64,000 nt of DNA, taken from Stegostoma tigrinum. Lineage: Eukaryota. The stretch covers positions 9,539,628 to 9,603,627 of the forward strand of contig NC_081396.1 in the NCBI RefSeq assembly GCF_030684315.1. The letters run 5' to 3'. This document shows, in pieces, positions 1,648 to 63,574 of this stretch (positions are counted from its first letter, which is position 1; each line of letters begins with the position of its first letter). Position numbers and translations under genes: made by a program. The notes under the pieces were generated by a model. That model did not search any database and was not told the origin of the DNA. It was given only the letters and a program-made list of their open reading frames with translations.

Positions 1648-2292
1648 CTGAGACGTAAAGGTATAGAGCCAAACAGGCCAAGCAGCATCGGAGGAGCTGA
1701 GAAACTGACGTTTTGGGTCAAGACCCTTCTTCAGAAATGGGGGATGGGAAGGGGATTCTGAAATAAGTCGGGAGAGAGCAGGAGGTGGATAGAAGATGGA
1801 TAAAGGAGAAGGTAGATGGAGAGTAAACAGACAGGTCAAAGAGGCAGAGTTGGATCCAATAAAGGTGAGTGTAGGTGTGGAGTGAGGGAGGTGACATGTT
1901 GGTCCAGGGAGGATGGGCAGGTCGAGGGGGTGGAATGAGGCTAGGAGGTAGGAGATGGGGGTGAGGCATGAGGGGGGGAAGTGGATAGGTGGGAGGCCAG
2001 GTTAGGGAGGTGGGTAAGAGCTGGGTTGGTTTTGAGATGTTGTTGGGGGAGGGGACATTTTGAAGCATGTGAAGTCCACATTGCTACCATTGGGCTGCAG
2101 AGTTCCCAAGCTAAAAAAGATACTGTTCCTGTAACCTTCGGATGGCATCGTTTTGGCACTACAGGAGGCCCAGGATGGACAATGTCATCCGAGGAATGGG
2201 ATGGGGAGCTGAAATGGCTCGTGACTGGGAGGTGCAGTTGTTTGATGCAAACCAAGCATAGGTATTCCGCAAAGTGGTGCCCAAGCCTCCGC
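1648..2292 (-). mobile_element. Penelope-like element 3' fragment (GIY-YIG C-terminus, C-rich UTR, hammerhead-bearing terminal repeat)
   Basis: Minus ORF contains CIKQLHLPVTSHFSSPSHSSDD, homologous to 56185-56390. Hammerhead-like ctgaagaagggtcttgacccaaaacgtcag lies at 1705-1734 (-). Confidence 0.8.
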
Positions 2293-2349
2293 TGATGTTG
2301 CTGTAGATCTGTTCAGTGGCGACATGCTGCTGGCGATGGAGGAAATGGC

Positions 2350-3602
2350 AGACAATTATCCTTTGGTCCTTCAGAGGCAAGACCTGATCAGGGATGGTCA
2401 GGATGGCTTTGGGTTTTTTGAAGAGGTAACCAACCAAGCGAGATGAAGGCAACACTATAGACATGATCTACATGGACTTCAGCAAGGTCTTCAATAAGAT
2501 ATCGCAAGACAGACTGGTTAGTAAGGTTAGACCACATGAGATCCAGAACGAGCTAGAGAATTGAATACAAAATTGGCTTGACTGTAGGAGGAAGCGGGTG
2601 GTGGAAGGGTTGTCTTTCGGGCTGGAGGCCTGTGACCAGTAATATGCTGCTAGGATTGGTGCTGTCTCCATTGTTGATTGTCATTTATGCAAACAATGTG
2701 GATGAGAATAAAGGAGGCATGGTTTGTAAGTTTGGAGGTGGCACTAAAATTGATGGTATAGTGGACAGTTATTAAGGTTACCTCAGATCACAAAGGCATC
2801 TCGATCAGCTGGACCAGGAGACCAAAGAATGGCAGATGATGTTTGATTCAGATAAATATGGGAAGTGGCATTTTTGGTAAGGCAAACCAGGGTAGTACTT
2901 ACATTTAATGATCAGACCCTGCAAAGTGTGGTCAACCAGAGATGCCTAGCAGTACAAGTAAATAGTTCCTTGAAAGTGGCATCGCAGGTAGACAGAGTGG
3001 TTAAGAGGGCATTTGGCACATTTGCCTCCATTGGTCAGAGCATTGAGCAGAGGAGTTGGGACATCATGTTGCAGCTCTACAAGATAAGGCCACGTTTGAG
3101 TTACTGCACACAATTCTGATCACTCGTCTATCGGTAGGGTGTTATTAAAGAGGAAAGGGTACAAAAAGGCTTTATGATGTTGTTACCAAGACTGGAAGGT
3201 TTAAGGAGAGGCTGGATGGGCTGGAAATTCTTTCTCTGCAGCTGATGGGTGACAGTAAAGAGATTTATAAAATGATGACGAGCACAGAGAAGGTGAATAG
3301 CCAATGTCTTTTCCCTCGGGCCAGGGAGTCCAAAACAAGAGGGCTGATGTTGAAGCTGAGAGAGGAAAGATTTAATGGGGATCTGAGGGGCATTTTTTTC
3401 TCATAGAGTGTGGTGCTCATATAGAATGAACAGATGGAGGAAGTGGTAGAGGCGATAACAATTACAGCATTTAAAAGACGGCTACATGGATAGGGAAGAT
3501 TTAGAGGGACAACGGGAAAATGGGACCAGTTTATTACGGGAAACCTGGCCGGTTTGGATGAGTTGGGCTGAAGAGCCTGTTTCCCTGCTGTATGCGTCTA
3601 TG
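2350..3602 (+). mobile_element. CR1/HER1-like LINE, 5'-truncated, degenerate RT C-terminus and 3' UTR
   Basis: YMDFSK.F.K, WRPVTSNMLLGLVLSPLL, KFGGGTKIDG and SLKVASQVDRVVKRAFG fragments with stops. CR1-type 3' tail ctgtatgcgtctatg. Confidence 0.9.
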
Positions 3603-4039
3603 TCCCTTTGATTACAGAGACAGGTCGGGTGGAAAGTGAGGACAAAGGGAACGCTGGCCTCATTCTGGGAAGAAGGGGAAGGGGCAAGAAAGCAGTGTGT
3701 AAAATGCGCCCCACGTAGCTAACTATGCCATCAACGATGGGTGTTGAGGTTGTGCAGGTGGAATCTTTACTGAGAAAAAGGGAGAACACAAAGTCAGGAA
3801 AAACTATTCTGTCTGCACAGTGCTGCTGAGTTTCTGCAGAATTTTCTCTTTTTATTTCTGATTTCCAGCATCTGCGGTATTTTGACTTTGTTTGAGTGAA
3901 AACCTTTTGAATCGGGTTGTGCAGCATTTCTGCCAAAAAAGCGACAGGCAATAGCCATCTACAGCAAAAGACGATCGAACCATTTCCCGTGTCACTCAGT
4001 GGAATTGCCGTTGTGGAGTACACCATTATCAACATGGTG

Positions 4040-4351
4040 GCAGGACGGTGGCTCAGTGGTTAGCACTGCAACCTCACAGACCCAGGGACCCGGGTTCGAT
4101 TCCAGCCTCGGGCAACTATCTGTGTGGAGTTTGCACATTCTCCCCACATCTGCGTGGGTTTCCTCTGGGTGCTCTGGTGTCCTCCCACAATCCAAAGATG
4201 TGCAGACAGGTCGATTGGCCATGTTAAATTGCCTGTAGTGTTCAGGGGTGTGCGGGTGAGAGGGGGATGGGTTTGGGTGGGATGCTTCAAAGGGCGGTGT
4301 GGGCTTTTGGGCCGAAGGGCCTGTTTCCATACTGTAGGGAATCTAATCTAA
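4040..4351 (+). mobile_element. HE1-like (V-SINE) tRNA-derived SINE, full length
   Basis: Pol III A box TGGCTCAGTGG 4049-4059, B box GGTTCGATTCC 4093-4103, V-domain tgtggagtttgcacattctcccc, CR1-like 3' end ggccgaagggcctgtttcc and (aatct)n tail. Confidence 0.9.
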
Positions 4352-5829
4352 TGTCATCTCAAATGTTAAATAGTGTGTCAGAATCTGGGAATGACACGGA
4401 GCATATTTGTTCTCCTGACTTGCCAAAGTCTTCCACCATTTAAAAGGTTTCAATCAGGAGTGCCCTGGTTGGGGGCAACTCAAATGATATTCAAGTGACT
4501 TGAATTCTAAGGACCAGATAGCCCACTTGACCAGAAAGCCATCCAACATGGACACATAGCAGCAGTCAGCACTACGTATCATGTACACTGCACTAACCCA
4601 CCAAGTTCTTGAGACAGTAACTTCTAAACTAATAACCTCAAACCCCAGGAGGGCAAAGCAGAAGATTTATGTCAGCACCACCACATACAAGTTCTCCACC
4701 AAGACATGCACCATCCTCATTTGGGACGATTGAAGCATCTCTTTTCAGTAGCCACGTCAAAATCTTGATACCCCCTTCCTTATGGGCATGAGCAATTAAT
4801 ACAAATCCAACCAGCGAAACCTACTTGGCATGACCCAATTCAATACGGATTTATAAGAGACAGGAAGATGGCAAGAGAATGCATTGAAAAGCAAATCAGT
4901 CATAATATATCAGTGGAGCAGACTGAATGGGCCGAGTTGTCTAGTTCTGCTCCTATTCCTTCTGACCTTATTGTCTAATAAGTATTGAAACCCTGTTCAG
5001 AGACCACACAGGCATAACGGGTCGATTGCCTTCATTCTATGCGACAAAAGTTCTTTGATTCATTTTGAGTCGGCAAAAATAGCTCTCCACAATTTAATTG
5101 AAACGAGGTTTCCCAATTCAGCACTTCGTTCAAATCGTAACATTTTCTGGGGCAAAAAAAATAGAAAACTACATGACAATGGCCTGAGGAATTTGATGGA
5201 AATGTTTGAACTGGATATGATCAGAGATTGGGGGTTTAATGTGCATGGCAATAGGTTAGTGCCACGTTGTATCACTGGAAATGCAGTCAAGTGAATTTGT
5301 CCTCGATGTTGTGTCCAGTTGGATCACTGCTTAGCACTCTAGTTTATCATTCACTGTGAATTTCAAGATGAAAACTCGAAATGTAGTCATAAATTGTGTT
5401 GATAGCATTTAGAGAAGCTGTTTTGTCATCCACGTGAGCAGTCAAAGTGCAGTAATCTCCGAACTGATTCAGAGAGCTGCTACTTTCTGTAATATCATTC
5501 TCACTTCTTGATGCTGAAATGTCCTCAAAAGCAAGTCCCCTGTTCAGAAAGTTCCAGCACTCAAAATGCTTAAAAAATCATATTCCTCAAGACCTCAACA
5601 AGTGAAAATATTGTCCCTGCATCTACATTGTCAAAATTTTATTCAGGTGAAAGAAAGATTTCTTTTATCATACTTCTCAAAGATCACAACTTGAAAGAAA
5701 GAAAGCCCTGATTCACAAATTTCAGTTCATATGATCCTCCTGCTATCACGGAGATAAAAGCTTCACTCCCACAGTGGATATGATGCCATTTTTGTGGTCA
5801 GGAAAGCAATACTGTACAATACTGTACAA

Positions 5830-7160
5830 ACTGGTCTATCACTGACTCCTCCCTTCCCTTCCTCGACATTTCTGTTTCCATTTCTGGGAATAGACTGGCC
5901 ACTAATATCCATTACAAACCCACCGACTCCCACAGCTACCTGGGCCATACATCCTCACAGCCCAATTCCTGTAAAAACTCCGTCTCATTTTCTCAGTTCC
6001 TCGGTCCCCATTGGCATATATTCAGATGAGGCCAGCTTCGACAACGGAGCCACCGAAATGTCCACATTCTTCCTCAACTGAGGATTCCCCAGCTCCGTTT
6101 TCGACAGAGCCCTCAATCAGGTCTGACCCAAGTCCCACACTTCCTGCCTCTATTCTTCACTTCCCTCCCTCAAGAGCAATAGGGCTCCCTTCATTGTCAT
6201 CTACCATCCCACCAGCATTCACATCCAAAAGATCATCACGCGCAATTTCTGCCACCTCCAGTGAGATGCCACCACCACACGCATATTCCCCTCCCCTCCC
6301 TTGTCTGCCTTCCGCAGGGACCATTCCCCTCCAGGACAGCCTGATCCACACTTCCTTCACCCCCAACACCTCCCCACAGCCCTACAGTACCTTTCCCTAT
6401 AACCAGCGAAGGTATAACACCTGCCCATTTACCTCCTCCCTCCCCAGTACCCAAGGGCCCTAACATACCTTCCAGGTAAAGCAACATTTCACCTGCACTT
6501 CCAAGAATCTCGTCGACTGCATTCGCTGCTCACAAGCTGGTCTCCTCTATCTTGAGGAAACAAAGCGGAGACTTGGCAACCGCTTCGCAGAACATTTACA
6601 TTCTGCTCGCAAAAAAGACGCTGAACTACCTCTTGCCTGCCACTTCGATGCACCACCCTGCTCTCAGGCCAACATCTCTGTCTCTGGCTTGCTACAGTGT
6701 TCCAGTGAAGCCCAACACAAGCTGGAGGAACAGCACATCATTTTCTGCTTGGGGGCCCTGCAGCCCTCCCGACTCAATATCGAGTTCAATAATTTTAGGG
6801 CCTAAACTCTCGCATGTCCCAGCCCCCCACCCAATATCAGGCCTTGTTACCACATAGCCTGCCATTACACACACCCTGTTGTTAGTCACTAACAGTGCCC
6901 ATTAACTATTATTCACCCTCCCAGCCTGATCATGAACGACTCCTTTTTCTGTCCGACTGTCTTTCTCTCTCTTTGGGCTCTATCTTATTGTTTACTCCCA
7001 ATGCAAACCAACTCCCAATTTTCTGCATGTAAACCGATGTTTTCCGAGCCATCATCAGATCTGAGGAAGGGCCACTGGACTGGAAACATTAACTCTGTTT
7101 TGTCCTCCACAGATGCTGGCAGGCCTGCTGTGTTTTTCCAGCAACATTGTATTTGTTACT
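5830..7160 (+). mobile_element. Penelope-like retroelement, 5'-truncated (RT thumb + GIY-YIG endonuclease + terminal repeat)
   Basis: Frame-broken translation HYKPTDSHSYL...SDEASFDNGATEMSTFFLN...CIRCSQAGLLYLEETKRRLGNRFAEHLHS...HKLEEQHIIFCLGALQPSRLNIEFNNF. Degenerate hammerhead ctgaggaagg..ggaaacatt at ~7061-7090. Confidence 0.9.
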
Positions 7161-7192
7161 GAACCAACTACTCCGGGTGTGTGCTACAAATG

Positions 7193-7515
7193 GGGCGGCA
7201 TGGTGGCTCAGTGCTTCGCACTGCAGCCTCACAGCACCAGGGACCTGGGTTCAATTACAGCCTCAGCAACTTTCTGTGTGGAGTATGCACAATCTCGCCA
7301 TGTCTGTGTGGTTTTCCTACAGGTGCTCCAGTTTCCTCCCACCGTCCCAAGGTGCGCAGGTTCGGTGGATTGGCCATGCTAAATTGCCCATATTGTTCAG
7401 GGATGTGTAGATTAGGTGGGTGAGAGGGGGGTGGTTCTGGGTGGGCTGCTCAGAGGATTGGTGTGGACTTGTTGAGCTGAAGGGCTTGTTCACTCAGTGT
7501 GGGGAGTCTGTGATC
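7193..7515 (+). mobile_element. HE1-like SINE
   Basis: ggcggcatggtggctcagtg A box, gggttcaatt B box, V-domain, ggccatgctaaattgcc. Confidence 0.85.
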
Positions 7516-7692
7516 GATCTTAAATGGGAAGTGCTTCTGATCAATGTTTCAAGGTAGTTTATACTTTCTAAAGTTGTCATGTGAAATAAGGTTTTAAAGG
7601 GAGAATAGCGTGAAAGCAGTCTGCGGGTAACATGAGATGGAACAGAATATGCAGCAGTGTACATTACTTTTCATGTTAATTAATGCTACTTT

Positions 7693-8305
7693 TCACTTTT
7701 CAAATATTTTAATAGACTTTATTGGATATTCGGTTGCAATTTTAATTCAGTTCTGAATTCAGCCTGGGTCGCCAGTGTAAATTTTTAAAAAATGGAAGAA
7801 GGAGCTTACTAGCCGAGCCATAAATCCAATTTCTTGGACGATAAGTGTAGAATAGCTGACTTTGGAACCTGGAGTACAGGTAATGTTTGCGAGTTGGGCA
7901 AATGGGATCCAAAATAAATAACAAATGTAATAGGATGATATTAGCTGAGATGGTGAAGAGTAAATCAATTAACTTTCACTGCTTCACCATCTCTGGGTCA
8001 TCTATATTCATACTGTTGCTCCGAGACCAGACATTCCTGTAAGATTTATCGATCATTAGAGTATGTTTGGCAATGAGCAGTAAAATCAGAATAAATGGAA
8101 GTAGAGGTGTTAAAATGAATGCAACTCAGTATGGCTCATGTAGGCGATGTATAAACAATTAGTTTTACGCTGCAGAACCAGGGTATGTTGTTAATCATGG
8201 AGGTAGCATCCTATTCAGAAAAATACAACAAGGCATTTTTTCCTGCACAGGCCAAAGTGAAGACGATTTCTATAATAAACGGACCCATCTTCGCAGTGCA
8301 ATTTC
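7693..8305 (-). pseudogene. GPR139-like GPCR pseudogene (TM4-TM7 half), inverted relative to genes A-C
   Basis: Minus strand encodes MINNIPWFCSVKLIVYTSP, ILTPLLPFILILLL, FMARLVSSF..IYTG and EFRTELK..EYP, colinear with 14650-15170 and 36660-37150 but with frameshifts and stops. The 5' part is lost at a repeat insertion (~8305). Confidence 0.85.
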
Positions 8306-8399
8306 GGATGAAGGGCCGAGTGTTGAAACGTCAGCTTTCCTGCTCCTCTGATGCTGCTTGGCCGGCTGTGATCATCCAGCTCTGTGCCTTGTTATCCCA

Positions 8400-8800
8400 C
8401 TTTTCTGTCAAGTGCTTTCACTCTCCTCTCGAATTCAGCTCTTTTGTCAATGTTTGAACCAAGGCTGCAATGAGATCAGGAGCCGAGCAGCCCTGACAGA
8501 GCCCAAACTGGGCGTCATTGAGCAGGGTGTTGCTGAGCAGGTACTGCTTGGATCGCACTGTTGATGAGATATTCCATTGCAGACGATCAACTGTAGACAG
8601 ATTGGCCAGTAATTGGTCAGATTGGATTTGTCCTGCTTATTGTGTACTGAACATCGCTGAGCAATTTTCCAAATTGTCGGTGAGATGCCGCTGTTGCGTC
8701 TGTACCTAACAGCTTGGCTCGAGGCGCAACAGATTCTGGAGCACAAGACCTTCATTACAATTAGTGGAATATTGTCAGGGTCCATAGATTTTGCCTCCAA
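8400..8800 (-). mobile_element. CR1/L2-clade LINE RT fragment
   Basis: Minus ORF KSMDPDNIPLIVMK...SGISPTIWKIAQRCSVHNKQDKSNLTNYWPICL, the typical pre-RT segment. Confidence 0.8.
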
Positions 8801-9049
8801 CCGTAACCTTCAAGCACTTTGCGCAACCTGAAGTTGAAGAAGGTGTTACATCAAGGTTGTTTCTTTGCACAACTGACTTTAGATGTTGCGCACTAGCGCC
8901 TTGTTGCAAACGAGTTTGCATGAGTTGTTGAGAAACAAATCACACTAAAATTCTGTTGATGGACAGATTCACAGGCGCATCAGCGTTATAGTAGGCGAGC
9001 CAGCCTGTTTCTGCATTCAACGTGAACAGCTGTTTGGTAACTCCAATAC

Positions 9050-10528: not shown

Positions 10529-10579
10529 TCACCAATTTTACACTGAAATTCTGAACGGAGATCAGACTGTCTGATAGAA

Positions 10580-10649
10580 ATGCACGTAGCACTAGAAGGT
10601 TTGCTGTTGGCCATTTACGACCACGTCATTGCAGCTATCGGAGTTCCTG
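10580..10649 (+). CDS. GPR139-like GPCR gene A, coding exon 1
   Basis: ATG...MHVALEGLLLAIYDHVIAAIGVP+G, 70 nt, followed by donor GTAAGT (phase 1). Same length and phase as the exons at 26162 and 63925. Confidence 0.85.
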
Positions 10650-11399
10650 GTAAGTTACTGTGCCTAGTTCGTGACTGCTCGAATGATGGGTAAACTGCAG
10701 CCAATGAGACATTTCATTAGAACCGCTTCTGCACGTTTCAGGTACCCAGTCTCCGATTCAACATCTCCTCATTAGTGCCCCCCCCCCCCCGCCACCCCCC
10801 CACCCCCGACTTACCAACATACTGGATTTTGTTTAGGTGCGTTTTTTTTACCATCAAACTTTCATGCCTTCGGTACTACAACCTCATAATCTCTCCCACT
10901 TCTAGCATTTTGACAAAATTTGGAGGGATTAATCCGTAATTTCTCCCAAGTTATTATGTTTGCTTCAAAATCTAAATCCCAAGGTTTCATCATATTGCAC
11001 CTGTAATTTGACAATTAGCAGTATTCTGTCTCCCGAGACGTGAACAATTTCATTGTTCCAATTCGATGATTCTACAGTTTAGACCTCAGCAGATAAATGT
11101 AGTAGAGATGCACCAAAGGCCCGCTTCCTGTGTGAATCGGCACAATGTTACCATGGCGTCAAATCAGTTCTGTTCTGGCATTGACTATGTTCTTATGGGT
11201 AAATTAATGAAAACTTTACTGTTGTGCAAAATGGTTCTGAGTGGACACTGAAATTTGAGTACTCACATCACTTTGCGAATTACGCCTTCCATGAGTCGCT
11301 TCAACTGTGAATAAGTTGTCCTATTCTTCACAGAGTGCAATTGCAGATTTGTTGTGGCACTGCCAACTGCAGGAGAAGAAACACCATGAATTAAATTGA

Positions 11400-11563
11400 T
11401 AAACTGCTGATGCTGGAGTGAGAGTTATCACAGTGTGGAGCTGGAGGAACACAGCAGGCCAGGCAGCATCAGAAGAGCAGGAATCACAGCCCAAAACATC
11501 AGCTTTCTTGCTCCTCTGCTGCTGCCTGGCCTGCTGGGTTCCTCCAGCTCCACACTGTGTTAT
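11400..11563. mobile_element. Inverted dimer of Penelope-derived short element with 14-bp TSD
   Basis: Arms cacagtgtggagctggaggaacacagcaggccaggcagca / tgctgcctggcctgctgggttcctccagctccacactgtg. ATGAATTAAATTGA at 11386-11399 and 11562-11575. Confidence 0.85.
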
Positions 11564-14284: not shown

Positions 14285-15200
14285 CGTTATTGTGATCCAG
14301 TCTCCAAAAAGGTGCGGTATTTCAGAATTTATCTCTTATTACCTAGTGTCAATGGAGGTGTCAGATCTGCTGGTCATTGTGACAGCTGTCATATTAAACC
14401 GCATTGCTGGGATTTACTTCCCGTCTAGTTTTCTCTCCCTCACACCAGTGTGCATTGTGCGTTCTGCGTTAAATTATGGATTTATTGATAGCTCTGCCTG
14501 GATAACAGTCGCTTTCACTGTTGATCGATTTGTAGCCATTTCTTGCCAGACGCTCAAAATAACATGTTGCACCAAGAGGACGGAAATGCGTTCTGTAGGA
14601 ATCGTGATCACATTAGGCTGTGTAAAAAATATATTTGTGTATTTTACATATGAACCAAGGTACGTGGTAGAAAATATACCCTGGTTCTGTAACCTAAAAG
14701 ATATATTTTTCACGTCAGTTGCATGGGCTGCTTATGACTGGGTTTGTTCAATTGTTCAATTTGTTCAATCCACTTGTCTCCCATTCATTCTGATTTTACT
14801 GCTCAATGCTCTGACCGTCAGGTACATTCTAGTGGCTAATAGAGCCCGCAGGAGACTCCGGACCCAGAACAATGGAAAGTATCAGAGTGATGCAGAGATG
14901 GAGAAGCGGAGAAAGTCAATCATTTTGCTATCTGCTATTTCAGGCAGTTTCATTCTGTTCAATGCACTCTACTTCATAACAATCCTGTACGTCCGCATCG
15001 GGAATCTTACTTATGCCTCGGATTCCGACTTTAACAATCTCTCTTTTGTTCTCAATGAAAATGCATTTATGCATCAGTTTTTGAGTTCCTGCGTCAACAC
15101 ATTTATATATGCTGGAACTCTGAATAAGTTCAGAGCCGAGTTAAAGAACGGGGTAGAGTATCCATGGAGACTTTTTCCTCAACTTAAATTCAAGTTTTGA
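14285..15200 (+). CDS. GPR139-like GPCR gene A, coding exon 2 (open, but possibly decaying)
   Basis: 304 visible codons: TM2 VSDLL, TM3 FTVDRFVAI, ECL2 PWFC, TM5 CLPFILILLLNALTV, TM6 KSIILLSAISGSFIL, TM7 SSCVNTFIY, stop at 15198-15200. Confidence 0.88.
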
Positions 15201-15405: not shown

Positions 15406-15666
15406 AGTTCATCAGTTGATGCCTGGCTATTCTGTCAAACTGGTCTTCACTGTATTATATAAATGCGACAAATTAGTTTTCAGTTCGACAAGCCCCTCAT
15501 TACGAGGGAGTCGCAGTCGCCAATTTGACACTATTACCTTAGCTATCGGGTTCTTGTCGCATTGATTTCATGTCCCACCTACTCCAGAGGTCATCGGCTT
15601 AGACATAGATCCCCACCTACTCCAGATGCGTACAGTAAGATTTATAAACAGGTTGATTGGAAAATA

Positions 15667-15866
15667 AGAGATAACAAGGTGTGGAGCTGGATGAACACAG
15701 CAGGCCAAGCAGCATCGTAGGAGCAGGAAGGCTGACGTTTCGTGCCAAGACACTTCATCGGAAAATCTGATTTTCTGAAAATGGGTCTAGGCCCGAAACA
15801 TCAGCTTTCCTGCTCCTCTGATGCTGCTCGGCCTGCTGTGTTCATCCAGCTCTGCACCTTGCTGTC
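15667..15866. mobile_element. Inverted dimer of hammerhead-bearing Penelope-derived element
   Basis: ~95-nt arms ataacaaggtgtggagctggatgaacacagcaggcc... / ...ggcctgctgtgttcatccagctctgcaccttg, with two degenerate hammerhead cores back to back at the centre. Confidence 0.85.
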
Positions 15867-15939
15867 TGTGAATGTATGTTGCCTGTTTATGCCGAAATGT
15901 GAGTGCGCATCTCGTTACTTTGTCAGTGCGCTTGACACA

Positions 15940-21050: not shown

Positions 21051-21629
21051 AGAGAAAGCAGATCTGATTCGAACATTTCTTATAAACATTCTGTCTTGCC
21101 TAGCGCATGCCCTGCACAATGTAACTTCTATGCCTCTGTCCGAGTTTTATTTTCACCCTGTGATCTGTACGTCCTTGCTTACTGTGATCTGCCTGCACTG
21201 CTCACAAACAAAGCTTTGCGCTGGACTTATATACGTGTAACAATAAATCAAATCAAATCGATTCAAATAGTATGGCAACCACTCTTTGCAAGACTGCAAG
21301 AAACCGGAGAGAGCTGTGAACACAGCACAATCCATCACACGAATCAGAGATAGCAAGATCTGCCGATACTGGAGTCAGAGATAATACAGTTTGCAACTGC
21401 AGGTACACAGCAGGCCAGGCAGTATCAGAGGAGGGACAAAGTTGATGTTTCAGGTCGGGACAAATCAGTCTGTATTCTGCTTTCTGTTCGGTATAGCATG
21501 CAAAACAACACATTCCACTGTGTCTCGATACACGTGACAAGAATAAACAAATTCAAACTGAAACGAAGCAGTTTTCAAAATCCCTCACTGTCAGACTAAG
21601 ATAAAAATTCAGAAGGTACAAACAATTAA

Positions 21630-51800: not shown

Positions 51801-52367
51801 CTGAAGAGGTTCCATGCAGTTGATTTTCGCGTTCCATATCTCCGCAATGCTCAAGATGTTCTTTCACATTCAAATCGAGTCTCAATTAGTCCACTGAATA
51901 TTGAACATTTTCCATCAAAAATATTTCCCTCTTTGCACTTTGATCGGATTAAATTATTTTATACATGTTTTCAATGATACAAAACCAAATTGAATCTGCT
52001 CTGCTATTTGATCCAATCAAGGTTGAGCTTATTTAAGCCTCCACTTTTCTACCGCACCACATAACACTTTCACCATTAAAAACTAAAAATCTGTCTATCT
52101 CCTCCTGAAGTTATCTCAACATCCTGTCGTCTGTCACATGCTGGAGGAAGTGAGGATTCAGGACCCTCTGTGAAAGAAGTAATTGCTCCTCAACTCCACT
52201 TTAAATCTTCTACCCTTGTGATAAAGTTGTCATTACAATTTTAATTCGCCCTTGTTCCAAGTAATGCTGTTACAAGATTGACGTTGCCATTGGTTGGAGG
52301 TTGTTGCTTTACTCATATCCCCCAAAGCAGTGAGCATTGTGGCCTCTGAGCATGGGTATTGAGAGGA

Positions 52368-52657
52368 GAGACAGTAGAAACTGCCAATGCTGGAGAATCT
52401 GGGATACTGAAGTGTAGTGCTGGGTGAACACAGCAGGCCAAGCAGCATCAGAGGAGCAGGAAAACTGACATTTCGGTTTTGGACCCTTCTTCAGAAATGG
52501 CTGGCTTCGCAGTGGGTTTAAAATGGATTCAGCGATTGTAGGAGTTGCTGATGCTAAAGAATGTGAGAGAACAAGGTTTTGAGCTGGATGAACACAGTAG
52601 GCAGGACAGCATAAGGGGAGCAGAAGAGCTGACGTTTCGGTTCTGGACCCTTCTTAG
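52368..52657 (-). mobile_element. Two successive hammerhead-bearing short elements
   Basis: Both end in gac(a/g)tttcggtt(t/c)tggacccttctt(c)ag on the plus strand. Confidence 0.8.
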
Positions 52658-53126
52658 GAGGATTCATGTCCCTCGAGACGAAATTTCAGCGATAATCTTG
52701 TGCCAGTTTCTACTTGTCACTTGTTTCATAGCAGTTAGTAGAAGCTACATGGAATTCATTCAGCATCAGATCCATGCTTGTGGTACATAATACAGGTAGT
52801 TAGCTCTTCGGGCTACTGATTTTAGATCATTTGTGACAAGTACAACATTTCCAAAGTGTTTTGTTTGTGACTTTGATTTTCGTTTCTTACTGGTTGTGAT
52901 CAGAGAATCTCTGCAAAACAATGATTTACGAAAGGGACTAGGGCAGAAGGAAGCATTGTAACTTTCGACTGCAACTACATCACCATTTTTCTTCCACTGA
53001 TTGTGGACCAAAAATGCAGCATTGAACCAAAGGTATGGAATTAAAGATAGTCCCGCTGGGAGCCCTTTAGTGCCCTTTACCCCTTCAGGGCTAGCTGCTT
53101 CGAATGGTGTCTTCAGTTTAATAGTT

Positions 53127-53590: not shown

Positions 53591-54756
53591 TTGCACTAGA
53601 AAAGCCTATGATCACATGAAGCCCAGTCCGCAAGGGGATTGCTTCAAAAGTACCTGTGCAGCTTTAATTTTTAAAATCCTATCAGTAAAATCTGGAAAAG
53701 AAGGCAGTTTACACAGCTACCATGTTTTATAGGCTGACGTTTCAGGCCTAGAACCTTCACCTGAAAATCCTGCTCCTAAAATGGCGGTTTGTCCGCTGTG
53801 TTCATCCAGCCCTACACCTTGTTATTTCTACAATGTTTTAGAGAAGTGAATTGTAAGTGCAAAATTCGTCCAGGCTGTGTGAGGCATTTCTGATGTCAAT
53901 GCCGTTACCTTGCCAAAAGCTGGTTCAGAAACCACTAAAGAGTAGGTTCTGAATATTTTCAACGAGTTGGAGTTTATTTTTATTCAATCATGTCTCACAA
54001 AATAATAGCAGCAATGCGGAAGATCGTAAATCCGAACTGAATTGTGTTAAAACTCTGTGAATTATACCCCAGTCGTAGCTTGCTTCCCATCAGATTTGCA
54101 TCACAGATTTTACCAATTGAAATTATTCAATGTAATTCTCTATTTAAAATGAGAATAGATGACTTTGAGCGTTGTTTATTTGCGAAATACCTCTCAAACA
54201 AAGCACTGAGGAGATCCATTTCATCATATAACCGATCTATCGTATCAATCAGATACTTCACAAAAGTCAACACGAGAATTATAATCACTTAGCTCATTTC
54301 TTAGTGGTGACAAAAAGCCAATACATGTAACATGATTGTTTTAGATTCGAGCAGAAAGGCACTCAGAAACAGAGGGAAATTAGCCCTCGGGCCTACTCGA
54401 TCATTTGGCAGAACAGTTGTTGAAATTCATTATGAACTACCGTTTACAGCGATAATAGGAACTGCAGATGCTGGAGAATCGGTGATGACAAGGTGCAGAG
54501 ATGGATGAACAGAGCAGGACAAGCAGCGTTGTAGAAGCAGGAAAGCTGACGTTTCGGGCCCAGACCCTTCAGCACTGTTTCTCTCTTCTGAACTCCAGGA
54601 TACTGAATTATCTCTCTCACATTCTGAAATCTACTTACTTCAGGAAAATGACTCCAATGAATCGTTTGTCTGCATTGTGAACATTGCCTTTCGTTCCGGC
54701 TGCAAATATGTAATCACTGTTGAGTTCTGCACTGAAACCAACAAATCCAAATCAGG

Positions 54757-54934
54757 CCTGGCAGCATCTGTGAGGAAAAAACAAATCAGAGTTAATGTTT
54801 TGGGTCCGGTTTTGGGGAAGGTTCACTGAAAGTTAACTCGGATTTTTCTTCACAGATGCTGCCAAACCTGTTGAGCTTTTCTGGCAACTTCTGTTTTTCT
54901 TCCTGATTTTCAGCATTGTTACTTCTTTCGGTTT
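54757..54934. mobile_element. Inverted dimer of a second Penelope terminal-repeat family, 14-bp TSD
   Basis: ggcagcatctgtgagg / cttcacagatgctgcc arms. AAATCCAAATCAGG 54743-54756 and AAATCCAAACCAGG 54935-54948. Confidence 0.75.
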
Positions 54935-55333
54935 AAATCCAAACCAGGAAATGGTTTCCCTAAATTGTTATGCAGACCACATTCCCCGTCAGTCCTACAC
55001 ACTGTTTGTCTGTCAGGAACTCGATAAATCCGCATGTCTTGTTTTGAGCAGGATTCTCAATTTCTTACACCATATTCTAATATTTATACTGACCCACTCC
55101 CAGCTTTTCTAACACAATAGTATTGCACATTTTATTTATTCTGCCTCTCAATACATAACAGTTACGTTCAGCAGTCGTCCCCGATAAATGTGCTTGCTCA
55201 TTAAGCAATGTCTCTGACTGCCTGAAGCCTAGTGTGGTCCCCTATCATTAGCACATTTAAACGACTCTGCAAATGGTTCCAGAAAACGGCCTGGAACTAT
55301 GTTGATATTTTGCCCCATATGCTCACCAGGCAT

Positions 55334-55520
55334 AAGAGAGAAGAACATGTAGAGTAGGATAATCTCAGCAGGCCAAGCAACATCAGAGGAGCAGGAAAGC
55401 TGACGTATCGGGCCCAGACCCTTCTTCAAACGATAGCTTTCCTGCTTGGCCTGCTGTGATCATCCTGCTCTAAACCTTGCTCTCTCCGATTCTCCAGGGT
55501 CTGAAGTTCCTACTATTGCT
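55334..55520. mobile_element. Inverted dimer of Penelope-derived element, 13-bp TSD
   Basis: GCTCACCAGGCAT 55321-55333 and GCACACCAGGCAT 55521-55533. Confidence 0.8.
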
Positions 55521-55859: not shown

Positions 55860-55889
55860 AACTTTCGAATCGAGATGATTCTTCGTCAG
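55860..55889 (-). ncRNA. Minimal hammerhead-ribozyme-like motif
   Basis: CUGACGA-A-GAAUC-AUCUC-GAUUC-GAAA-GUU, with a perfect 5-bp stem II. One base is missing from the usual ACGU stem III. Confidence 0.6.
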
Positions 55890-56030: not shown

Positions 56031-56057
56031 CTGAAGAAGGGTAATACCCGAAATGTT
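56031..56057 (+). ncRNA. Minimal hammerhead-ribozyme-like motif
   Basis: CUGAAGA-A-GGGU-AAU-ACCC-GAAA-UGUU at the head of a short Penelope-type terminal repeat. Confidence 0.6.
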
Positions 56058-56179
56058 AACTGCCCCTTTCTTCCAGATTCTTCCTGGCCTGCTGTGTTCT
56101 TCCAGCCTCCTGTTTATCTAACTTTACTGGAAACTTCGGACTTGAATTCTACCTGGATTTCCCTCAACATTAAATACAA

Positions 56180-56846
56180 CGCCCATGAATCAGCAGTTCG
56201 CAATAAACAACCGCACCTCCCAGTCGCGAACCATTTCAAGTCCCCCTCCCATTCCTTGGATGGCATGCCCATCCTGGGTCTCTTGCAGTGCCACAACAAT
56301 GCCACCCGCAGGTTGCAAGAACAGCAAGTCATATTCTGCTTGGAAACCCGGCAGCCCAATCCTATCAATGTGGATTTCACAAGCTTCAAAATCTCCCCTC
56401 CCGCCACTGCATCCCCAAACCAGTCCAGCTCGTCCCCGCCTCCCGAACCTGTTCTTCCTCTCACATATCCCCTCCACCCACCTCATGCCGCACCTCCATT
56501 TCCTAACTACTACCCTCATCCCGACGCTTGACCTGTCTGTACTCCCCTAACTGACCTAACCCCTCCCTACCTCTCAACCCACACTCACCTCTACAGGCTC
56601 AATCCCCGCGACTTTGGCTTTCCTGTCTCCACTCCATCTATCTTCTCCTCTATCCATCTTCAATTCGCCTCCCCGTCTCTCCCTTTTTACTTCAGAACCC
56701 TCTCCCCATCCAGCCTTTCTCATGAAGGGTCATAGCCCAAAACGTCAGCTTTTGTGCTTTGAAGCTGTTGCTTGGCCCGTTGCGTCCATATAGCTCCACA
56801 CTTCGTTATCTCGGATTCTCCAGCATCTGCAGTTCCCATTATCTCT
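56180..56846 (+). mobile_element. Penelope-like element 3' fragment with terminal repeat
   Basis: SAVRNKQPHLPVANHFKSPSHSLDGMPILGLLQCHNNATRRLQEQQVIFCL, C-rich UTR, degenerate hammerhead at ~56719-56747, tail ccagcatctgcagttcccattatctc. Confidence 0.88.
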
Positions 56847-57849
56847 CATTTCAAAGAACATCATGAACTTTCCTTTTGTGGGGATTGTTCTTCCAAGTAG
56901 GTTAGAAACTCTTAGCCCCTCTTCCAATTGTCACATTGATTACTGATGGCAAGATCTGAACTTGACGACGTTCCTAACACTGTAGGCACAACCAATAACG
57001 TTATCATTTATATCTGATAAACCGCATAAAAGTTGAAGATTAACCACAACATTCAAAATAGATGTGTTTCCTTTAAGAAAATGTACCAGAAGCCGGCTTC
57101 CTGTGAAGACTCAGCCATGTTTTAAGTGATAACAGTCTGTCTTTCTCGACCAAAGCAGAATGGTCAGAAAGCAGACACTCATGAGTTATTAGTGCAGCTT
57201 GCATTCCAGGTCAGTGAGAAGCTTTACATCAACATATTGTTTTACCTCTCGATTTTAACATTGACATTGGATCAATCACCATGATCGTCTGGAATGTATA
57301 CAAAAATGCTAGGTCATTTTGGAATATTATTCCCATTTTCCAAACCTGTGTACTACGGCACGTGAACAGATTCTATGACTCTAATTGGACTTTTTCTTTT
57401 GTTTCCAGTATTGTAAACAAGCGATTCAGGGAGCAGCTCTCCCCTTTTATTGATACTGGTTAATTATTCTGTTAATTCTGCGGCAACATTTCAATTGAAT
57501 TTGTACAGGGTGTTAATGCAAAAGATGCAATTGGATTACAAATGGATATTAGTATTTATTATTGCCGTCAGACTCATGACATGTAAGTATTTAAATTATT
57601 AGAAAATTGAATTCAATTAATAGCTAATTGATATTCACTGGTAGTTCAAATTTACGCCTTCTTCAGTCCTGCTGCTGAAATAATCATATTTTTAATGCTA
57701 CTTTTCAATAATTAAGGAGCGTTGTGTATCCAATTCAATGTTATTTCGTTATTTTAAAGAGAATAGCAAGTGTGAAGATGTTGGGAGGAAATCCAATAAT
57801 CAACTTGTAGATTTTTATTAAATGAACAGATGAAGCTGCAGTCTGGGCA

Positions 57850-58290: not shown

Positions 58291-59539
58291 GCTAAAGTGA
58301 AACGAAGAAGCCTAAAGCCATAAATTCACGAGAAAAAGAGTAGAGTGGTACAAAATGCAAGCAAAATAACAAATGAAGAGATGTTTCTTTGTATCATTGG
58401 GGTGGACGCACGTTCAAAGATGTGCAGGTCGGGGAATTGGGCATGTTAATTTGTCTGCAGTGTCCAGGCATGTGCAAGCGAGGTGGATGAGCCTGAATAA
58501 GAGCCGGGAATAAGGAGGGCCAGAGTTGGATGTTCTTCAGAGTGTCGTTGCAGATTCAGTGGGCCGAATAGCCTCTTTCTGCACTGTAGCGATTCTATGA
58601 ATCTATGAAGTAGTGAATGTCAAACCTTACTTGTGTGCAGCCGTCTGATCAATACATTTACTCCCTGTTGAATTCTGTGCACCACACTCCAGCAATACAT
58701 TTGTTTTTTTGTGCACAACACAAATCATCAAATCAAAAATGGAATAGAATGTTAATTTATGGGCAGAAAGCCACACAAAGGATGATGAATTGTCGGCTCC
58801 CTCATGACTAAAGTGCCTTTTATTCAGTAATAACGGGGATATAATGTACAGTGGTTGAAGATGTGCAGAACAGAAACAGGCAAATCATCTAGACAGAGAA
58901 ATTATGGAGCTGATAATGTTAAACAGGACCTTGCACTCAAATTTCTTCAGCTATCTTACATTTACCCTATCTCTTCTGGCCACCTGCATAATTTCAAATA
59001 CCTTCCTTGTATTGATTTTATGAAACTGTACAGTAATCAGAAGATATTCCCTTGTAAACACTCAGCCTTCTCCAGAAAAGAGAGATATACAGTTCAACAT
59101 TACGGTTCGGTCGAAAATCAAGTCATCTGAGATTTCTGAAGCAGGGACCCGACCCGAAACATCAACTTTCCTGCTCCTCTGATGCTGCCTGAGCTGCTGT
59201 GTTCTTCCAACACCACACTGTGTTATCTCTGACTCCAACATCGGCAGTTCTTACTATCTCTGAGTAAAAACAGCAGTGTCTTTATTGAAAGCAGAACTCT
59301 TTACATAACTGCAACGTTTTATATCCTCGCTTCAGTACAAGAGCTCTGCTTTTCAGTAACTTTCCAATAGATATACCCGGAGTTCTTTGTTTGGCTGAGA
59401 GTGAACTTGATCAGCTGCATCATCACTTTGCACATTAAGATTCCTTCGTTCTTTGCCCTTTTAAGATTTTTCAAGGATCATGTGATCTCTACATACATTG
59501 AAACGAACTTATATCAGTTAATTCCGATAAATATTGAAA

Positions 59540-60365: not shown

Positions 60366-60520
60366 TAGTCTGCTGTGAGTATTCTGTGTTTTGAGTAAAA
60401 TAACAGAAGAAATCTAGTCGAACTTGGGACATGGATAATGGAGGTAGGGTGATATTCCGTCAAGACGAAACGTTATATCGATCCCGCTGCAAATTGAAAA
60501 TGGGCTATGTACGGAATATG

Positions 60521-60700
60521 TGAAGCTGCATGAACACAATGGGCCAAGCAGAATCAGAGGAGCAGAAAAGTTGACTTTTTGGGTCGAGACCCTTCTTCAG
60601 TCAACGTTCCGGCTCCTCTGATGCTGCTTGGCCCACTGTTTTCATCCAGCTCCACAAGGTGGTATCTCACATTCACCAGCATTGACAGTTCTTACTGTTT
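60521..60700. mobile_element. Inverted dimer of hammerhead-bearing element
   Basis: gggccaagcagaatcagaggagc / gctcctctgatgctgcttggccc arms, joined at ccttcttcag|tcaac. Confidence 0.8.
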
Positions 60701-61340: not shown

Positions 61341-61429
61341 TAATGGGCAACATTTAATGAAATGAAAGATAACAAGGTGTAGAGCTGGATGAACACAGCA
61401 GGCCAAGCAGCATCAGAGGAGCAGGAAGG

Positions 61430-61459
61430 CTGACGTTTCGGACCTAGACCCTTCTTCAG
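61430..61459 (-). ncRNA. Best-preserved minimal type I hammerhead core, within short element 61365-61462
   Basis: CUGAAGA-A-GGGUCUAGGUCC-GAAA-CGUC-AG: all conserved core nucleotides, palindromic ACGU stem III, GUC cleavage triplet. Confidence 0.7.
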
Positions 61460-62454
61460 AAATTCAAGTTTGGATAGGGCCCATGCAGAGTAACTGGTTC
61501 TTTGATACGGCAATGCAAAACAATAGGTAGGACAATTAGGTCATTCAAGCATTGACTTTCTTTGGAAAGAAGAATTGTGAACATCTTGAATTATTTCACC
61601 AGCAAAGATTGTGATGGTATATAATAACATCACTTGTCAATGTCAATATCAGCAGACACTTTTCGTTTGTAACTTTGCAGGGTATTACTAATGGTTAGAA
61701 TGTAAGCATATGTATCACGATCAAGTCCATGAACTCATTTTCAAATTTCAAACCATCAGACCACTTACAGGTCGTTTGGAAAGAGTTACAGCCTCCCATT
61801 GCTCACAACTGAATGAGAAATCCTCCCCATTTTATTCTGCAAAGTGCAATTTGGTTGCGCCATGAAGAGGAGCAGCAGTGCATTTGGGAGTTCTTACATT
61901 GCACAAGATGTGAAGTCATGCTATCAACTGCTGTTGAGTTGAGATTCTGATGGAAATGCTTGGATGACACACAGCCAAAGGGGGTTTCCCTTTCTCTGAA
62001 ACGGTCATGATGCTTTGTAACATTTCTGAATTAGATGTTTAAAGCAGGGTACTCGAATATGTTAAGGAGAGAGAGACACATATTCTTGATACGGTTATGT
62101 CGAGATTAATTAGGATTGAAGAGAATGTGAATAATCAGACCATCCATTATAGACGAAATTATGGAGAAGGCTTGACCAGCCGGCTGGCGAGCTTCTGCTC
62201 TAATTGGGATTTCTGTCTGCACAAATGACAGCAGCCGCATTGAACTGAACTAAAAATCCTGTTGAGAGTCATCCTACTAAATCGAATCCTGTCAACTTGA
62301 AAAATGCGCAAGTCAGACCGGACAAGTACACAGGCGTTTAGCTGCTCTGTGATAGATTGATCATCGCTGAATGTGCTTGTTCTGAACTGATTAAAACCAC
62401 ACTGAATGTAATTGACCCGAACTGCGCGTTAAAAACTTAGTGGACATTACCGAA

Positions 62455-62771
62455 GGCCAGGAAGCATCAGAGAGGGGCATGAAAAATGACGTTTTGGGAA
62501 GGGGTCCTTGCCCGAAACGTCAGCTTCCCTGTTCCTCTGATGCTGCCTGGCCTGCTGTGTTCATCCACACTGTGTTACCTCCAGCACCGCCCATCATTCC
62601 CGCACAATGCTTGGAGGAGCAGGAAATTTGACATCTTCAGAAATTCAGAAAAAAGTGTCCCGACACAAAACCTCAACTTCCTTGCTCCTCTGATGCTGCC
62701 TGTTCCTGTGCATTCCACCAGCTCCCCACTGTGCTATCTCTCAGTCCAGTATCGGCAGTTCTTGCTGTCTC
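62455..62771. mobile_element. Compound inverted array of hammerhead-bearing elements
   Basis: Alternating-orientation arms. Flanked by tggacattaccgaa 62441-62454 and tgaacattactgaa 62772-62785. Confidence 0.7.
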
Positions 62772-63390
62772 TGAACATTACTGAACTTGCATTTCCCTCT
62801 GTAGGTGTAACTGTCCTGAATATCTAAGTTAACAGCGACATCAGATTTCTGGATCGAATTTATCCACACCGAAAGTAACCAAAGTCGGGCTCAATGTCGC
62901 TGATGCATGAAAGTGCTATGAACTGGACCCGGATTTGGCAACACAGTACATACCGCGATTAAACAGGCCCTGACTATGGATTTAGCCATGCTGAAGCCTA
63001 GAGGGGTCAAGTGTATCGAAATGTGTGGGGCTAATCTTATCTTGGAATAAACACACGGAATATTTCTCCCCGAAAGTGTGCCAGTTTATTTTTGTTTCCC
63101 CTGCATGTACAGATGTTAAACATAACATTTTGACACCGAATACAACTGTTCTACGCTGGACCTCTTCACGCACTGGTCTCAAAATGGCAACGAGCTGACT
63201 GAGGTACTTGGGAAGAAATGGACCCGAGCACAACTAAGATGACAAAGCTTCACTGCAATGTCCACACGGAATATAATTGATCGGACTTCACGATTTGAAC
63301 CTGTTTCAAATCACCTCCCATATGGGTAATGATCATCTTGAACGAATAATGGCCGTGATGCGGTGGTGCAGTGTGGACTGAGCGTGGACA

Positions 63391-63574
63391 AGGTCAGAAG
63401 TCACATGACACCAGGTTGCCATCCAACAGGTTCATTTGAAATCGCAAGCTTTCGTCAGCGCTACTACTTCTTTGGATCGACACACTCCACCGGACAAAGG
63501 AGCAGCGCTTGGAAAGCTTGTGTTTTGAAATAAACTTGTTGGACTATAACCTGGTGTCGTGTGACATCTTGACC
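63391..63574. mobile_element. Inverted dimer of a further Penelope terminal-repeat family, upstream of gene C
   Basis: gtcacatgacaccaggtt...ccaacaggttcatttgaaatc / ttttgaaataaacttgttgga...aacctggtgtcgtgtgac. Degenerate hammerhead ggagcagcgcttggaaagctt at ~63499-63519. Confidence 0.75.

Follow-up and report, generated by a model that had tools for sequence, protein, structure and literature searches.

The window analysed here, a stretch of 64,000 nucleotides from the genome of the shark Stegostoma tigrinum, is strewn with short repeats that carry a hammerhead-like motif. This raises the question whether the motif is a genuine ribozyme, from which elements the repeats derive and whether their RNA is cut in living cells. 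A preliminary description had read them as several distinct families of non-autonomous, retrozyme-like elements.

As a genome sample, 160 random 10-kb stretches were requested and the 121 existing ones used; the first 80 (800 kb) served for the strict motif count and the analysis of tandem arrays and junction microhomology, and were one basis of the copy-length range. The genome-wide descriptor search proposed earlier, run on these 800 kb, yielded 67 strict hammerhead matches versus 0, 0, 1, 0, 0, 0, 0, 1, 0 and 0 in ten Markov controls. Within the window, a relaxed scan found 45 matches versus 22–28 in five controls, three zero-mismatch matches were found versus 0–1 in five controls, and a hammerhead-like motif was present at all seven coordinates previously listed. 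A profile search of the window revealed 32 arms, 14 of which span the whole ribozyme, in agreement with the earlier count of well over a dozen repeats. At the family level the conserved core CUGANGA ... GAAA ... UH surrounds a paired stem II. Two features not demanded by the descriptor accompany it, namely an additional nucleotide separating positions 9 and 10.1 (87/87 matches) and G10.1 with C or U at 11.1 (85/87); positions 15.1–16.1 are palindromic without a helix III, reading ACGU or AGCU or their CpG decay products. Among 126 copies, the two CpGs, including that of the catalytic G12, showed 15–22% change versus mostly 1–5% elsewhere. The motif is a real, previously described minimal self-cutting RNA motif, and the preliminary description had correctly recognised the minimal type I hammerhead of Penelope-like elements (PLEs), the extra base after A9, the palindromic stem III, the CpG-decayed cores and, for the main family, the stem I length of about 2 bp. 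Four of the 14 complete window arms retain every one of the 11 core bases tested, and the only fully intact ribozyme lies at 61432–61459. The copies at 1705 and 39285 carry G12A and that at 15775 carries G8A, so they are predicted to be dead; judged by sequence, nearly all window copies are predicted to be inactive. An Rfam scan of the window by e-value returned no hammerhead family, only sub-threshold miRNA-like matches on hairpins.

On a scale in which the C of CUGA is 0 and the first base past the predicted cut is +28, the window holds the following features (head-to-head and inverted copies are unstranded):

1646–2293, minus: 5'-truncated Penelope-like copy with GIY-YIG C-terminal remnant, pyrimidine-rich 3' region and hammerhead at 1734–1707 (G12A, predicted dead); aligns to reference -601 to +60
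5850–7146, plus: 5'-truncated copy of sister family B with broken RT thumb, Cys linker remnant, GIY-YIG and 3' region; its hammerhead, beginning at 7061, has a decayed stem II
8304–8403, plus: main-family lone arm, U4G
11402–11563: head-to-head pair reaching +115 and +90, flanks duplicated over 14 nt; ribozyme mostly missing
15647–15873: head-to-head pair, both arms from -1 (15762 minus, 15774 plus), cores U4C and G8A
21346–21461, minus: lone arm, long end; 5' core missing
25761–25992: head-to-head pair, arm starts +10 and +9; 5' half of core missing
35925–36132: head-to-head pair with a long (+124) and a short end (+93), flanks duplicated over 18 nt
39190–39313, minus: long-ended AAC-subfamily arm with G12A; the roughly 10 nt in front of it complement the post-cut sequence and are a candidate tiny inverted arm or stem I
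39923–39987, minus: arm without ribozyme, starting at about +33
50749–50848, minus: lone arm, short end
52366–52660, minus: direct partial tandem, spacing 164 nt; unit 1 from -2 to +155, past the tail, unit 2 from -6
53731–53829: main family, small decayed inverted arrangement
54448–54575, minus: lone arm, +1 to +127
54751–54906: family B head-to-head pair
55329–55516: head-to-head pair reaching +92 and about +122, flanks duplicated over 10 nt
55860–55889, minus: hammerhead of an unrelated family, stem II GAAUC/GAUUC, intact core
56031–56107, plus: diverged-subfamily arm, intact core, stem II GGGU/ACCC, stem III AUGU
56142–56848, plus: 5'-truncated copy with GIY-YIG remnant, 3' region and long tail end; hammerhead at 56719 (G5C and G12A, predicted dead)
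59135–59261, plus: lone arm, -1 to +127, A9C
60514–60697: head-to-head pair, arm starts 0 and +25, G12A
61360–61460, minus: main-family lone arm, the sole copy in the window whose core is intact, whose stem II pairs and which keeps the ACGU palindrome; ribozyme 61459–61432, predicted cut between 61432 and 61431, tail to about the short end
62449–62582: decayed head-to-head pair
62650–62767, plus: decayed lone arm, G12A
63386–63580: family C head-to-head pair, decayed in both window cores; the family has stem II GGAGC/GCUCC and stem III AGCU

The claim of several distinct families holds in part. Five of the seven copies originally listed (1705, 15775, 39285, 56031 and 61430) were recovered by the one 32-arm profile as related subfamilies of one element, whereas only those at 55860 and 63499 were unrelated to the others by BLAST. 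Similarly, covariation is real between families, but the stem II differences among window copies are those of one-sided decay: GGGU/ACCC, GGGU/GCCC and GGGU/GUCC vary on one side alone, and among 17 window copies two-sided change occurred in one of six pairs (2 cells), not above shuffles (352/500). The stem, said to stay paired, does not do so at 63499, where GGAGC/GCUUG places G opposite G at 10.1–11.1, the core there reading CCGGACA. Stem I was not part of the search, yet covaries between families: pair 2.1–1.1 is U-A in family A (66), A-U in E (8), U-A in B/A2 (8) and C-G in C (1), while pair 2.2–1.2 is C-G or U-G, C-G, U-A and A-U, respectively; in family A this stem comprises 2 bp only. 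The family at 55860 has one relative (L082) in 1.7 Mb, and no parent was found by its profile search, which drifted into the main family; for family C one locus, L157, is a tentative candidate parent. A recurrent junction in L036, L136 and L147, considered as a non-autonomous chimera, proved to be a LINE poly(A) end inserted in the hammerhead of the second family.

The putative parent was recognised in natural open reading frames (ORFs) of 433–509 amino acids, in which reverse transcriptase (RT) motifs, a Cys linker and a GIY-YIG-type motif occur in this order, followed by the hammerhead motif. Pfam matched such RT-EN frames below its cutoff (RVT_1, E 1.3e-5, 25.5 of 29.6 bits; GIY-YIG, E 0.052), and a PDB sequence search with the RT-EN frame gave 0 matches. 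The linkers CNRRKCYTC and CNWRRCNTC in translations of L043, L035 and L031 conform to CX2-5CxxC. In 27 of 30 genomic loci, one of the 27 being a main-family arm, the motif lies about 250–290 nt behind the GIY-YIG region, and L175 and L188 are full-length copies that open with it (inverted arm, hammerhead, tail and an ORF of at least 563 and at least 518 codons). The coding pieces of the window itself are broken; all three end in the motif, as had been stated, but Pfam gave no GIY-YIG for them, the 38 window frames yielding neither RT nor GIY-YIG and two 7tm_1 matches. The genomic copies thereby show the features of EN+ PLEs: one ORF in which RT precedes GIY-YIG, a hammerhead-bearing pLTR at either end, truncation on the 5' side, copies in partial tandem or inverted, a tail and a target-site duplication (TSD). 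Most likely, the repeats are the hammerhead-plus-tail ends of autonomous RT/GIY-YIG Penelope-like elements, that is, 5'-truncated stubs.

Copy lengths are continuous from about 50 nt to about 2 kb. The 5' starts of 96 young arms lay beyond -500 (14), at -500 to -101 (17), at -100 to -11 (8), at -10 to +9 (36) or later (21); 5' ends are concentrated immediately ahead of the core (-7 to +8) and exactly on the base that follows the predicted cut. The 3' ends of 95 arms were short (41), long (34), beyond +135 (13) or other (7), and they fall mainly into two groups separated by some 35 nt, one at +91 to +93 and the other near +127. Head-to-head pairs are long + short in 36 of 37 cases, with no long + long and one short + short (p 2.7e-10), and in 37 of 40 cases in the second family. 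The 5' ends of the two arms are correlated (rho 0.73), and no arm is consistently the longer at this side (14 / 6 / 16). Flanks share at least 9 nt in 28 of 37 pairs versus 4 of 1,332 mismatched flanks, the target duplications measuring 9–17 bp. An assembly artefact was considered for the pairs and rejected because they are asymmetric and carry target duplications; a head-to-head layout with a one-sided tail and a target duplication is previously published.

Genome-wide starts of young arms, with similar denominators, numbered 3,095 at +28, 323 at +23, 567 at +12, 863 at +37, 204 at +55 and 4,915 at -1; the patterns for +12 and +37 leave out one palindrome type, and the counts leave out +29 to +36. 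Twenty-nine of 30 inspected +28 loci were true ends, and in two the ORF-start sequence is joined directly to +28. In the main family the four post-cut bases read AGCT, itself a palindrome. By an eye count, 63 of the first 100 +28 matches listed were perfect palindromes, so that the arm may end anywhere from +28 to +32; once they are set aside together with 10 joins by AGC microhomology, the excess relative to +23 is about 3.5-fold. The random sample of 96 young arms contained one arm at +28 versus 13 at +33 to +47. In the second family the outermost end falls on the cut base in 13 of 40 junctions (four of the 13 ambiguous by one base), seven junctions having both arms on that base and no microhomology. 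The raw excess at the cut was 65 versus 12 and 22 in controls that exclude palindromes, and 7 of 30 inspected cut-site matches were internal indels. Six of the 40 junctions lie on an ACGT palindrome, hence microhomology also shapes junctions. Predicted folds of a young monomer and of a natural tandem hide the core (tandem stem II and inter-copy stem III probabilities 0.0), and in dimer folding neither two young monomers nor the L088 tandem took the hammerhead dimer as their minimum-energy shape. The minority of genomic copies that start exactly at the predicted cut suggests that the motif cuts in living cells; the footprint is probably the fossil trace of cleavage that occurred now and then in vivo, the majority of RNAs having been copied uncut. 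A literature search, covering mostly freely accessible main texts, found no publication that deals with Penelope hammerheads of sharks or with genomic copies that begin at the cut site.

That the motif is a decayed relic or a chance resemblance lacking ribozyme function in these elements is hardly credible: the 2-bp stem I of the main family, the negative Rfam scan, the folds that hide the core and the Xenopus dimers, eight of nine of which did not cleave in vitro according to the available text of bioRxiv 10.64898/2026.07.22.740005, have to be set against the excess of strict matches over controls, the unsearched features, among them stem I pairs that switch between families, and the footprint at the cut site. 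Very improbable, too, is an origin of the short repeats as independent non-autonomous retrozymes, whose tandem units would cleave as dimers, circularise and be reinserted by the Penelope RT. The genome does contain tandem arrays with complete hammerheads elsewhere (L088, period 440; L103, period 301) as well as a nine-unit 208-nt array in which the core is absent, and the same preprint describes, in its available text, pLTR-derived retrozymes in one chondrichthyan. The window, however, holds no tandem array; its closest thing to a retrozyme-like dimer is the partial tandem at 52366–52660, with a broken core in unit 1, and two or more consecutive complete hammerheads occur elsewhere, in L088 and L103. 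Tandem junctions in L172–L201, a small sample, were locus-specific, none recurring at an independent locus as expected of a repeated unit that spreads as a family. The short copies are without a fixed unit, end at the same 3' sites as the long coding copies and pass gradually into the latter; arms on opposite strands can form no dimer in cis. Together with the position of the motif behind GIY-YIG and at the opening of full-length ORF copies, these observations largely refute the retrozyme reading, and with it the earlier interpretation as non-autonomous, retrozyme-like elements, for the dispersed copies of the window.

A further possibility, which we consider doubtful, accepts the same parent, but explains the pairs by one cDNA that folds back and primes itself, and attributes the junction peaks, that at the cut site among them, to palindromic microhomology and RT stalling instead of RNA ends. 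Self-priming was proposed earlier for such palindromes (PMC3846280, available part), and the AGCT at +28, the second-family junctions on ACGT, the 1–4 nt of microhomology at several junctions and a C run beginning just upstream of -4 are consistent with it. In contrast, in the main family the ends at an equally long ACGT palindrome five bases upstream number only a tenth of those at the cut site, the seven second-family junctions on the cut base are free of microhomology, neither arm is consistently longer at the 5' side, and loop-less palindromes exist in the first 80 stretches.

We favour the reading of the stubs as dead-on-arrival ends of autonomous Penelope-like retrotransposons and assign it, with the following insertion model, a probability of about 0.8. 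The RT of the element would start inside its own RNA and run out after 50–130 bases, leaving a stub. The endonuclease would cut both target strands about 14 bp apart, each target end would prime at one of two tail sites, with a single RNA probably serving both, and the resulting cDNAs would be joined where synthesis stops. The pile at -7 to +8 may mark the start of the RNA itself on uncut template, the majority, although its -4/-1 part could instead reflect RT stalling at the C run; the pile at the post-cut base may stem from the few percent of RNA that the hammerhead had cut beforehand. Once inserted, the ribozyme would decay like neutral DNA. We regard it as somewhat probable that the minimal hammerheads of two or more unrelated Penelope families cut their RNA in the germ line, at the bond predicted, though in only a few percent of the copied templates, and that a dimeric enzyme copies one RNA twice from two tail sites into both ends of a staggered cut.

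The repeats of the window are an instance of a class described in 2014. With an estimated 190,000 or so young arms genome-wide, cleavage in cells and two-ended priming can be tested by counting insertion ends alone. If the model is true, the stubs preserve the Penelope cycle as a fossil record at base resolution and supply in vivo evidence of cleavage that RNA-seq of the anole element did not give (PMC11167929, available text). As a by-product of value, they bear on whether weak minimal Penelope hammerheads cut in cells at all, their activity being described as low (PMC4209133) and their function as unclear (PMC8557442) in the accessible parts of these papers.

The following comparisons refer likewise to the accessible parts of the cited texts. 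Animal non-LTR retrozymes (bioRxiv 10.64898/2026.07.22.740005; PMC7229834) resemble our elements in their pLTR-derived type I hammerhead and our short copies in the absence of coding capacity, but form tandem units with at least two consecutive complete ribozymes, whereas the window copies are dispersed, inverted or single and without a fixed unit. The minimal hammerheads of metazoan PLE pLTRs (described by Cervera and De la Pena 2014, PMC4209133) share with ours the core, the extra base 9/10.1, G10.1-C11.1, the palindromic 15.2–16.2 without helix III and the many sequence families per genome; they, too, occur for the most part singly, "probably related to truncated PLEs", and also in opposite-strand pairs. 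Their consensus stem I has 4–5 bp (2 bp in D. virilis) versus 2 bp in our main family, their numbers reach 4,000–9,000 in coelacanth and Xenopus versus our estimate of about 190,000 young arms, and copy ends, mapped here, were not mapped in the text available, which mentions no shark. The CX2-5CxxC linker is found in the Neptune clade as here, and is common to Nematis as well (PMC8557442). Published EN+ PLE units (PMC3846280, PMC8557442) likewise show 5' truncation, partial tandems, an adjacent inverted copy, a 30–40 nt tail on one end and a TSD around the whole unit; the tail is "optional or frequent" there, whereas the long + short combination is nearly obligate here (36/37 and 37/40), and our units, unlike those, have often shrunk to less than 250 bp. 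Poseidon_Ac (PAc) of anole, studied in vitro (Frangieh et al. 2024, PMC11167929), belongs to a different clade and host; its RNA-seq reads, as described in that text, neither start nor end at the cut site, where genomic copies start in our case, and its two strands showed no difference in start site, whereas the two strands use different sites here. As in our model, the PAc hammerhead lies upstream of the tail, RT starts at two internal sites, both target strands are cut and extended, and uncut RNA is the main template.

The hammerhead motif reported in the preliminary description is present at 7/7 of its sites. A strict descriptor without stem I, run on randomly placed stretches of the S. tigrinum assembly totalling 800 kb and on ten Markov controls, gave 67 matches in the genome versus 0–1 per control. 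A relaxed scan of the window was noisier (45 matches versus 22–28 in controls) and revealed a perfect core only at 56031, 61459 and 55889. With an iterated profile we recovered 32 arms in the window, in agreement with the well over a dozen copies first counted; an arm denotes a single copy of the ribozyme-plus-tail end, and numbering starts with 0 at the C of CUGA (hammerhead C3). The proposed division into distinct families stood for 55860 and 63499, which showed no BLAST match in common with the other listed copies. Those at 1705, 39285, 56031, 15775 and 61430 were all recovered by one iterated profile, as was 7061, and most listed copies are therefore subfamilies of one element, the main family (A).

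Among the 14 window arms spanning the whole ribozyme, four keep all 11 tested core bases, six carry G12A, and only 61459 combines an intact core and stem II with the ACGU palindrome. The core decayed neutrally after insertion: in 126 copies, two CpGs including G12 showed 15–22% change, compared with mostly 1–5% elsewhere. Stem II had been described as varying in sequence while staying paired. At 63499 its first pair is broken, and within the window family, where 88% of stem II cells pair (17 copies), the listed variants are one-sided; a two-sided change was found at one pair only among these 17 copies and was equalled by 352/500 shuffles. Between families, covariation is real. Stem I, which lies outside the search descriptor, pairs as U-A/C-G in family A, A-U/C-G in E, U-A/U-A/G-C in B and C-G/A-U/C-G in C (one match). 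In 1.21 Mb, all 87/87 strict matches carry an extra base after A9 and 85/87 have G10.1 with C or U opposite.

The coding fragments said to end in the motif indeed do so:

5850–7146: broken reverse transcriptase (RT) thumb and GIY-YIG-type region, then the motif
1646–2293: aligned to the reference from about −600 as far as the ribozyme
56142–56848: aligned to the reference from about −560 as far as the ribozyme

Pfam called neither RT nor GIY-YIG on the window pieces. A first-look search of the genome with the 113-aa frame of 5850–7146 gave 211,190 candidates, 150 of which were scored; natural open frames of 433–509 aa around its matches carry RT motifs, a Cys linker and an endonuclease motif in this order, with weak Pfam scores that stay below the cutoff (RVT_1, E 1.3e-5; GIY-YIG, E 0.052). 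In 27/30 loci the motif is located ~250–290 nt downstream of the endonuclease, and long copies also open with it: at loci L175 and L188 an inverted arm is followed by ribozyme, tail and an ORF that continues for ≥563 and ≥518 codons, respectively. The parent of the short copies is a Penelope-like element (PLE), and its CX2-5CxxC linker, compared with the available text of PMC8557442, suggests the Neptune clade. For the young subfamily, 73 exact matches in 1.21 Mb extrapolate to ~190,000 arms. A polypyrimidine tract with AG ~24 nt upstream of the core (window 1757 and 56695; reference −24) resembles a splice acceptor; PLE introns with ends close to helix I are described in the accessible portion of PMC4209133. 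The window piece 6464–6802 is 93% protein-identical to locus L002 (contig C55, ~110 kb downstream) as compared to ~80% for other copies, which suggests a local segmental duplication.

The 5′ ends of 96 young arms are continuous from about −1,900, with piles at −10 to +9 (36 arms) and +33 to +47 (13 arms). The 3′ ends of 95 arms fall mainly into a short class around +91 (41 arms) and a long class around +127 (34 arms), separated by 35 nt; 13 lie beyond +135 and 7 elsewhere. This pair of ends is the Penelope tail, which the sections available of PMC11167929 attribute to two internal RT start sites. Head-to-head pairs, in which two arms on opposite strands are joined at their 5′ ends, combine a long and a short 3′ end in 36/37 cases, with no long+long and one short+short pair (p = 2.7e-10); in family E, 37/40 pairs are long+short. 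The 5′ ends of paired arms are correlated (rho 0.73, 37 pairs), and a flank of 9–17 nt is common to both sides in 28/37 pairs versus 4/1,332 mismatched flanks. Each pair therefore represents a single insertion event. In the window, target duplications flank the pairs at 35925 (18 nt), 11402 (14 nt) and 55329 (10 nt); four further window pairs tested showed none above 5 nt.

Such an event would involve a staggered cut of both target strands and priming of the two strands at separate tail sites, with a single RNA as the probable template. As the RTs of these elements are not known to have RNase H, the RNA would persist through copying, which would run off either where the RNA begins (−4 to −1) or where the ribozyme cuts (+28); the two cDNA ends would then be joined. 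Fold-back from a fixed first strand might instead give rise to the pairs. Against this route, neither arm is consistently the longer at its 5′ side (14, 6 and 16). That the −4 to −1 pile marks the transcript start is tentatively suggested by the pile-up and by a preceding G, as expected from a copied cap, in 7/8 arms starting at −4 (loci L007, L064, L094, L097, L124, L141 and L171). The partner arm can account for about half of these G residues, which weakens the suggestion; alternatively, the pile may reflect stalling of the RT at the C run.

The predicted scissile bond lies at +27/+28 in the main family and at +33/+34 in the second family (E), which is absent from the window. We counted 5′ ends of young arms genome-wide with a pattern of three non-matching and then 24 matching letters at the chosen base (denominators 114,000–193,000). 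Two 5′-end classes were observed, at −1 (4,915) and +28 (3,095), the counts at +12, +23, +37 and +55 being 567, 323, 863 and 204. The ACGT palindrome at +23, of the same length as AGCT at +28, attracts one tenth as many ends. Inspection confirmed true ends at 29/30 +28 loci, with ORF-start sequence joined straight to +28 in two. In a count by eye, perfect palindromes around a central AGCT made up 63 of the first 100 +28 matches listed; their ends could be placed anywhere between +28 and +32. Without them, the excess over +23 shrinks to ~3.5-fold. The random sample held a single arm with its 5′ end at +28. Family E has no palindrome at the cut and, with palindromes left out of its control counts, showed 65 ends on the cut base versus 12 and 22 at the positions five bases upstream and downstream, respectively; 7/30 inspected cut-base matches were indels. 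A gap pattern detected 60 family E junctions near the cut site. Of the first 40, 13 have the cut base as their outermost end; the assignment is unambiguous in 9, and in 7 both arms begin there without microhomology. In 6 the outermost end falls on the ACGT palindrome, and each other base accounts for at most 5. These genomic ends are most simply read as coming from templates of which a few percent would carry a ribozyme-made 5′ end, most being uncut.

Predicted folds disfavour the active hammerhead shape, which would fit a need for protein help, yet counts against easy cleavage. In the best predicted fold of the young main-family monomer (0 to +29), CUGAUG is paired with CGUCAG and the core is masked (−11.4 kcal/mol, against −3.6 kcal/mol when the monomer forms the hammerhead skeleton); this fold may represent an off state.

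The repeats had been interpreted as non-autonomous and retrozyme-like. The tandem unit that defines retrozymes in the available text of bioRxiv 10.64898/2026.07.22.740005 was not found in the window, where the sole direct tandem is partial:

52366–52660: direct tandem; unit one passes the tail to +155, core broken

With arms on opposite strands, a dimer in cis is impossible; the window repeats are not retrozymes. Elsewhere in the genome, tandem units of deleted Penelope elements form arrays at L088:7219–8434 (period 440), L103:4982–5845 (301) and C2:58043058–58044748 (208). Consecutive units with intact hammerheads occur at L088 and L103, as in the published definition of a retrozyme. Every tandem junction among loci L172–L201 is private, so that the arrays resemble single template jumps that were then multiplied in place.

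The window repeats are interspersed within and among the genes of a receptor cluster, which comprises two 7tm_1 frames and three first-exon-like pieces that are similar to one another:

10560–10653, 14286–15197, 26142–26235, 36192–37196 and 63905–63998, + strand: apparently two-exon rhodopsin-type receptor gene cluster (Pfam, sequence similarity)

Three independent copies of one LINE (L036:4398, L136:610, L147:8742) have poly(A) ends at nearly the same spot in the family E hammerhead, pointing to target-specific insertion; a 71% piece of this LINE lies at 28726–28835. Further abundant window repeats (3563–4339, 7269–7504, 25340–25528, 28325–28541 and others; families D10, D13 and D17–D20) putatively resemble the ends of CR1-type LINEs, along with the corresponding SINEs.

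Altogether, the preliminary observation is partly confirmed and its interpretation partly supported. Literature searches, with supplements and subscription papers outside their scope, yielded nothing on shark Penelope hammerheads or on genomic copies starting at the cut site. Motif class, host element and insertion layout are already known. The S. tigrinum hammerheads share the extra base after A9, G10.1 and the paired stem I, traits listed for minimal PLE hammerheads in the portion available of PMC4209133. The head-to-head pairs share the layout of inverted terminal repeats (pLTR), a tail on one side and a target duplication already published for PLEs (PMC3846280 and PMC8557442, as far as accessible). 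In the anole system in vitro, the majority of templates were uncut, as we read it here from genomic ends.
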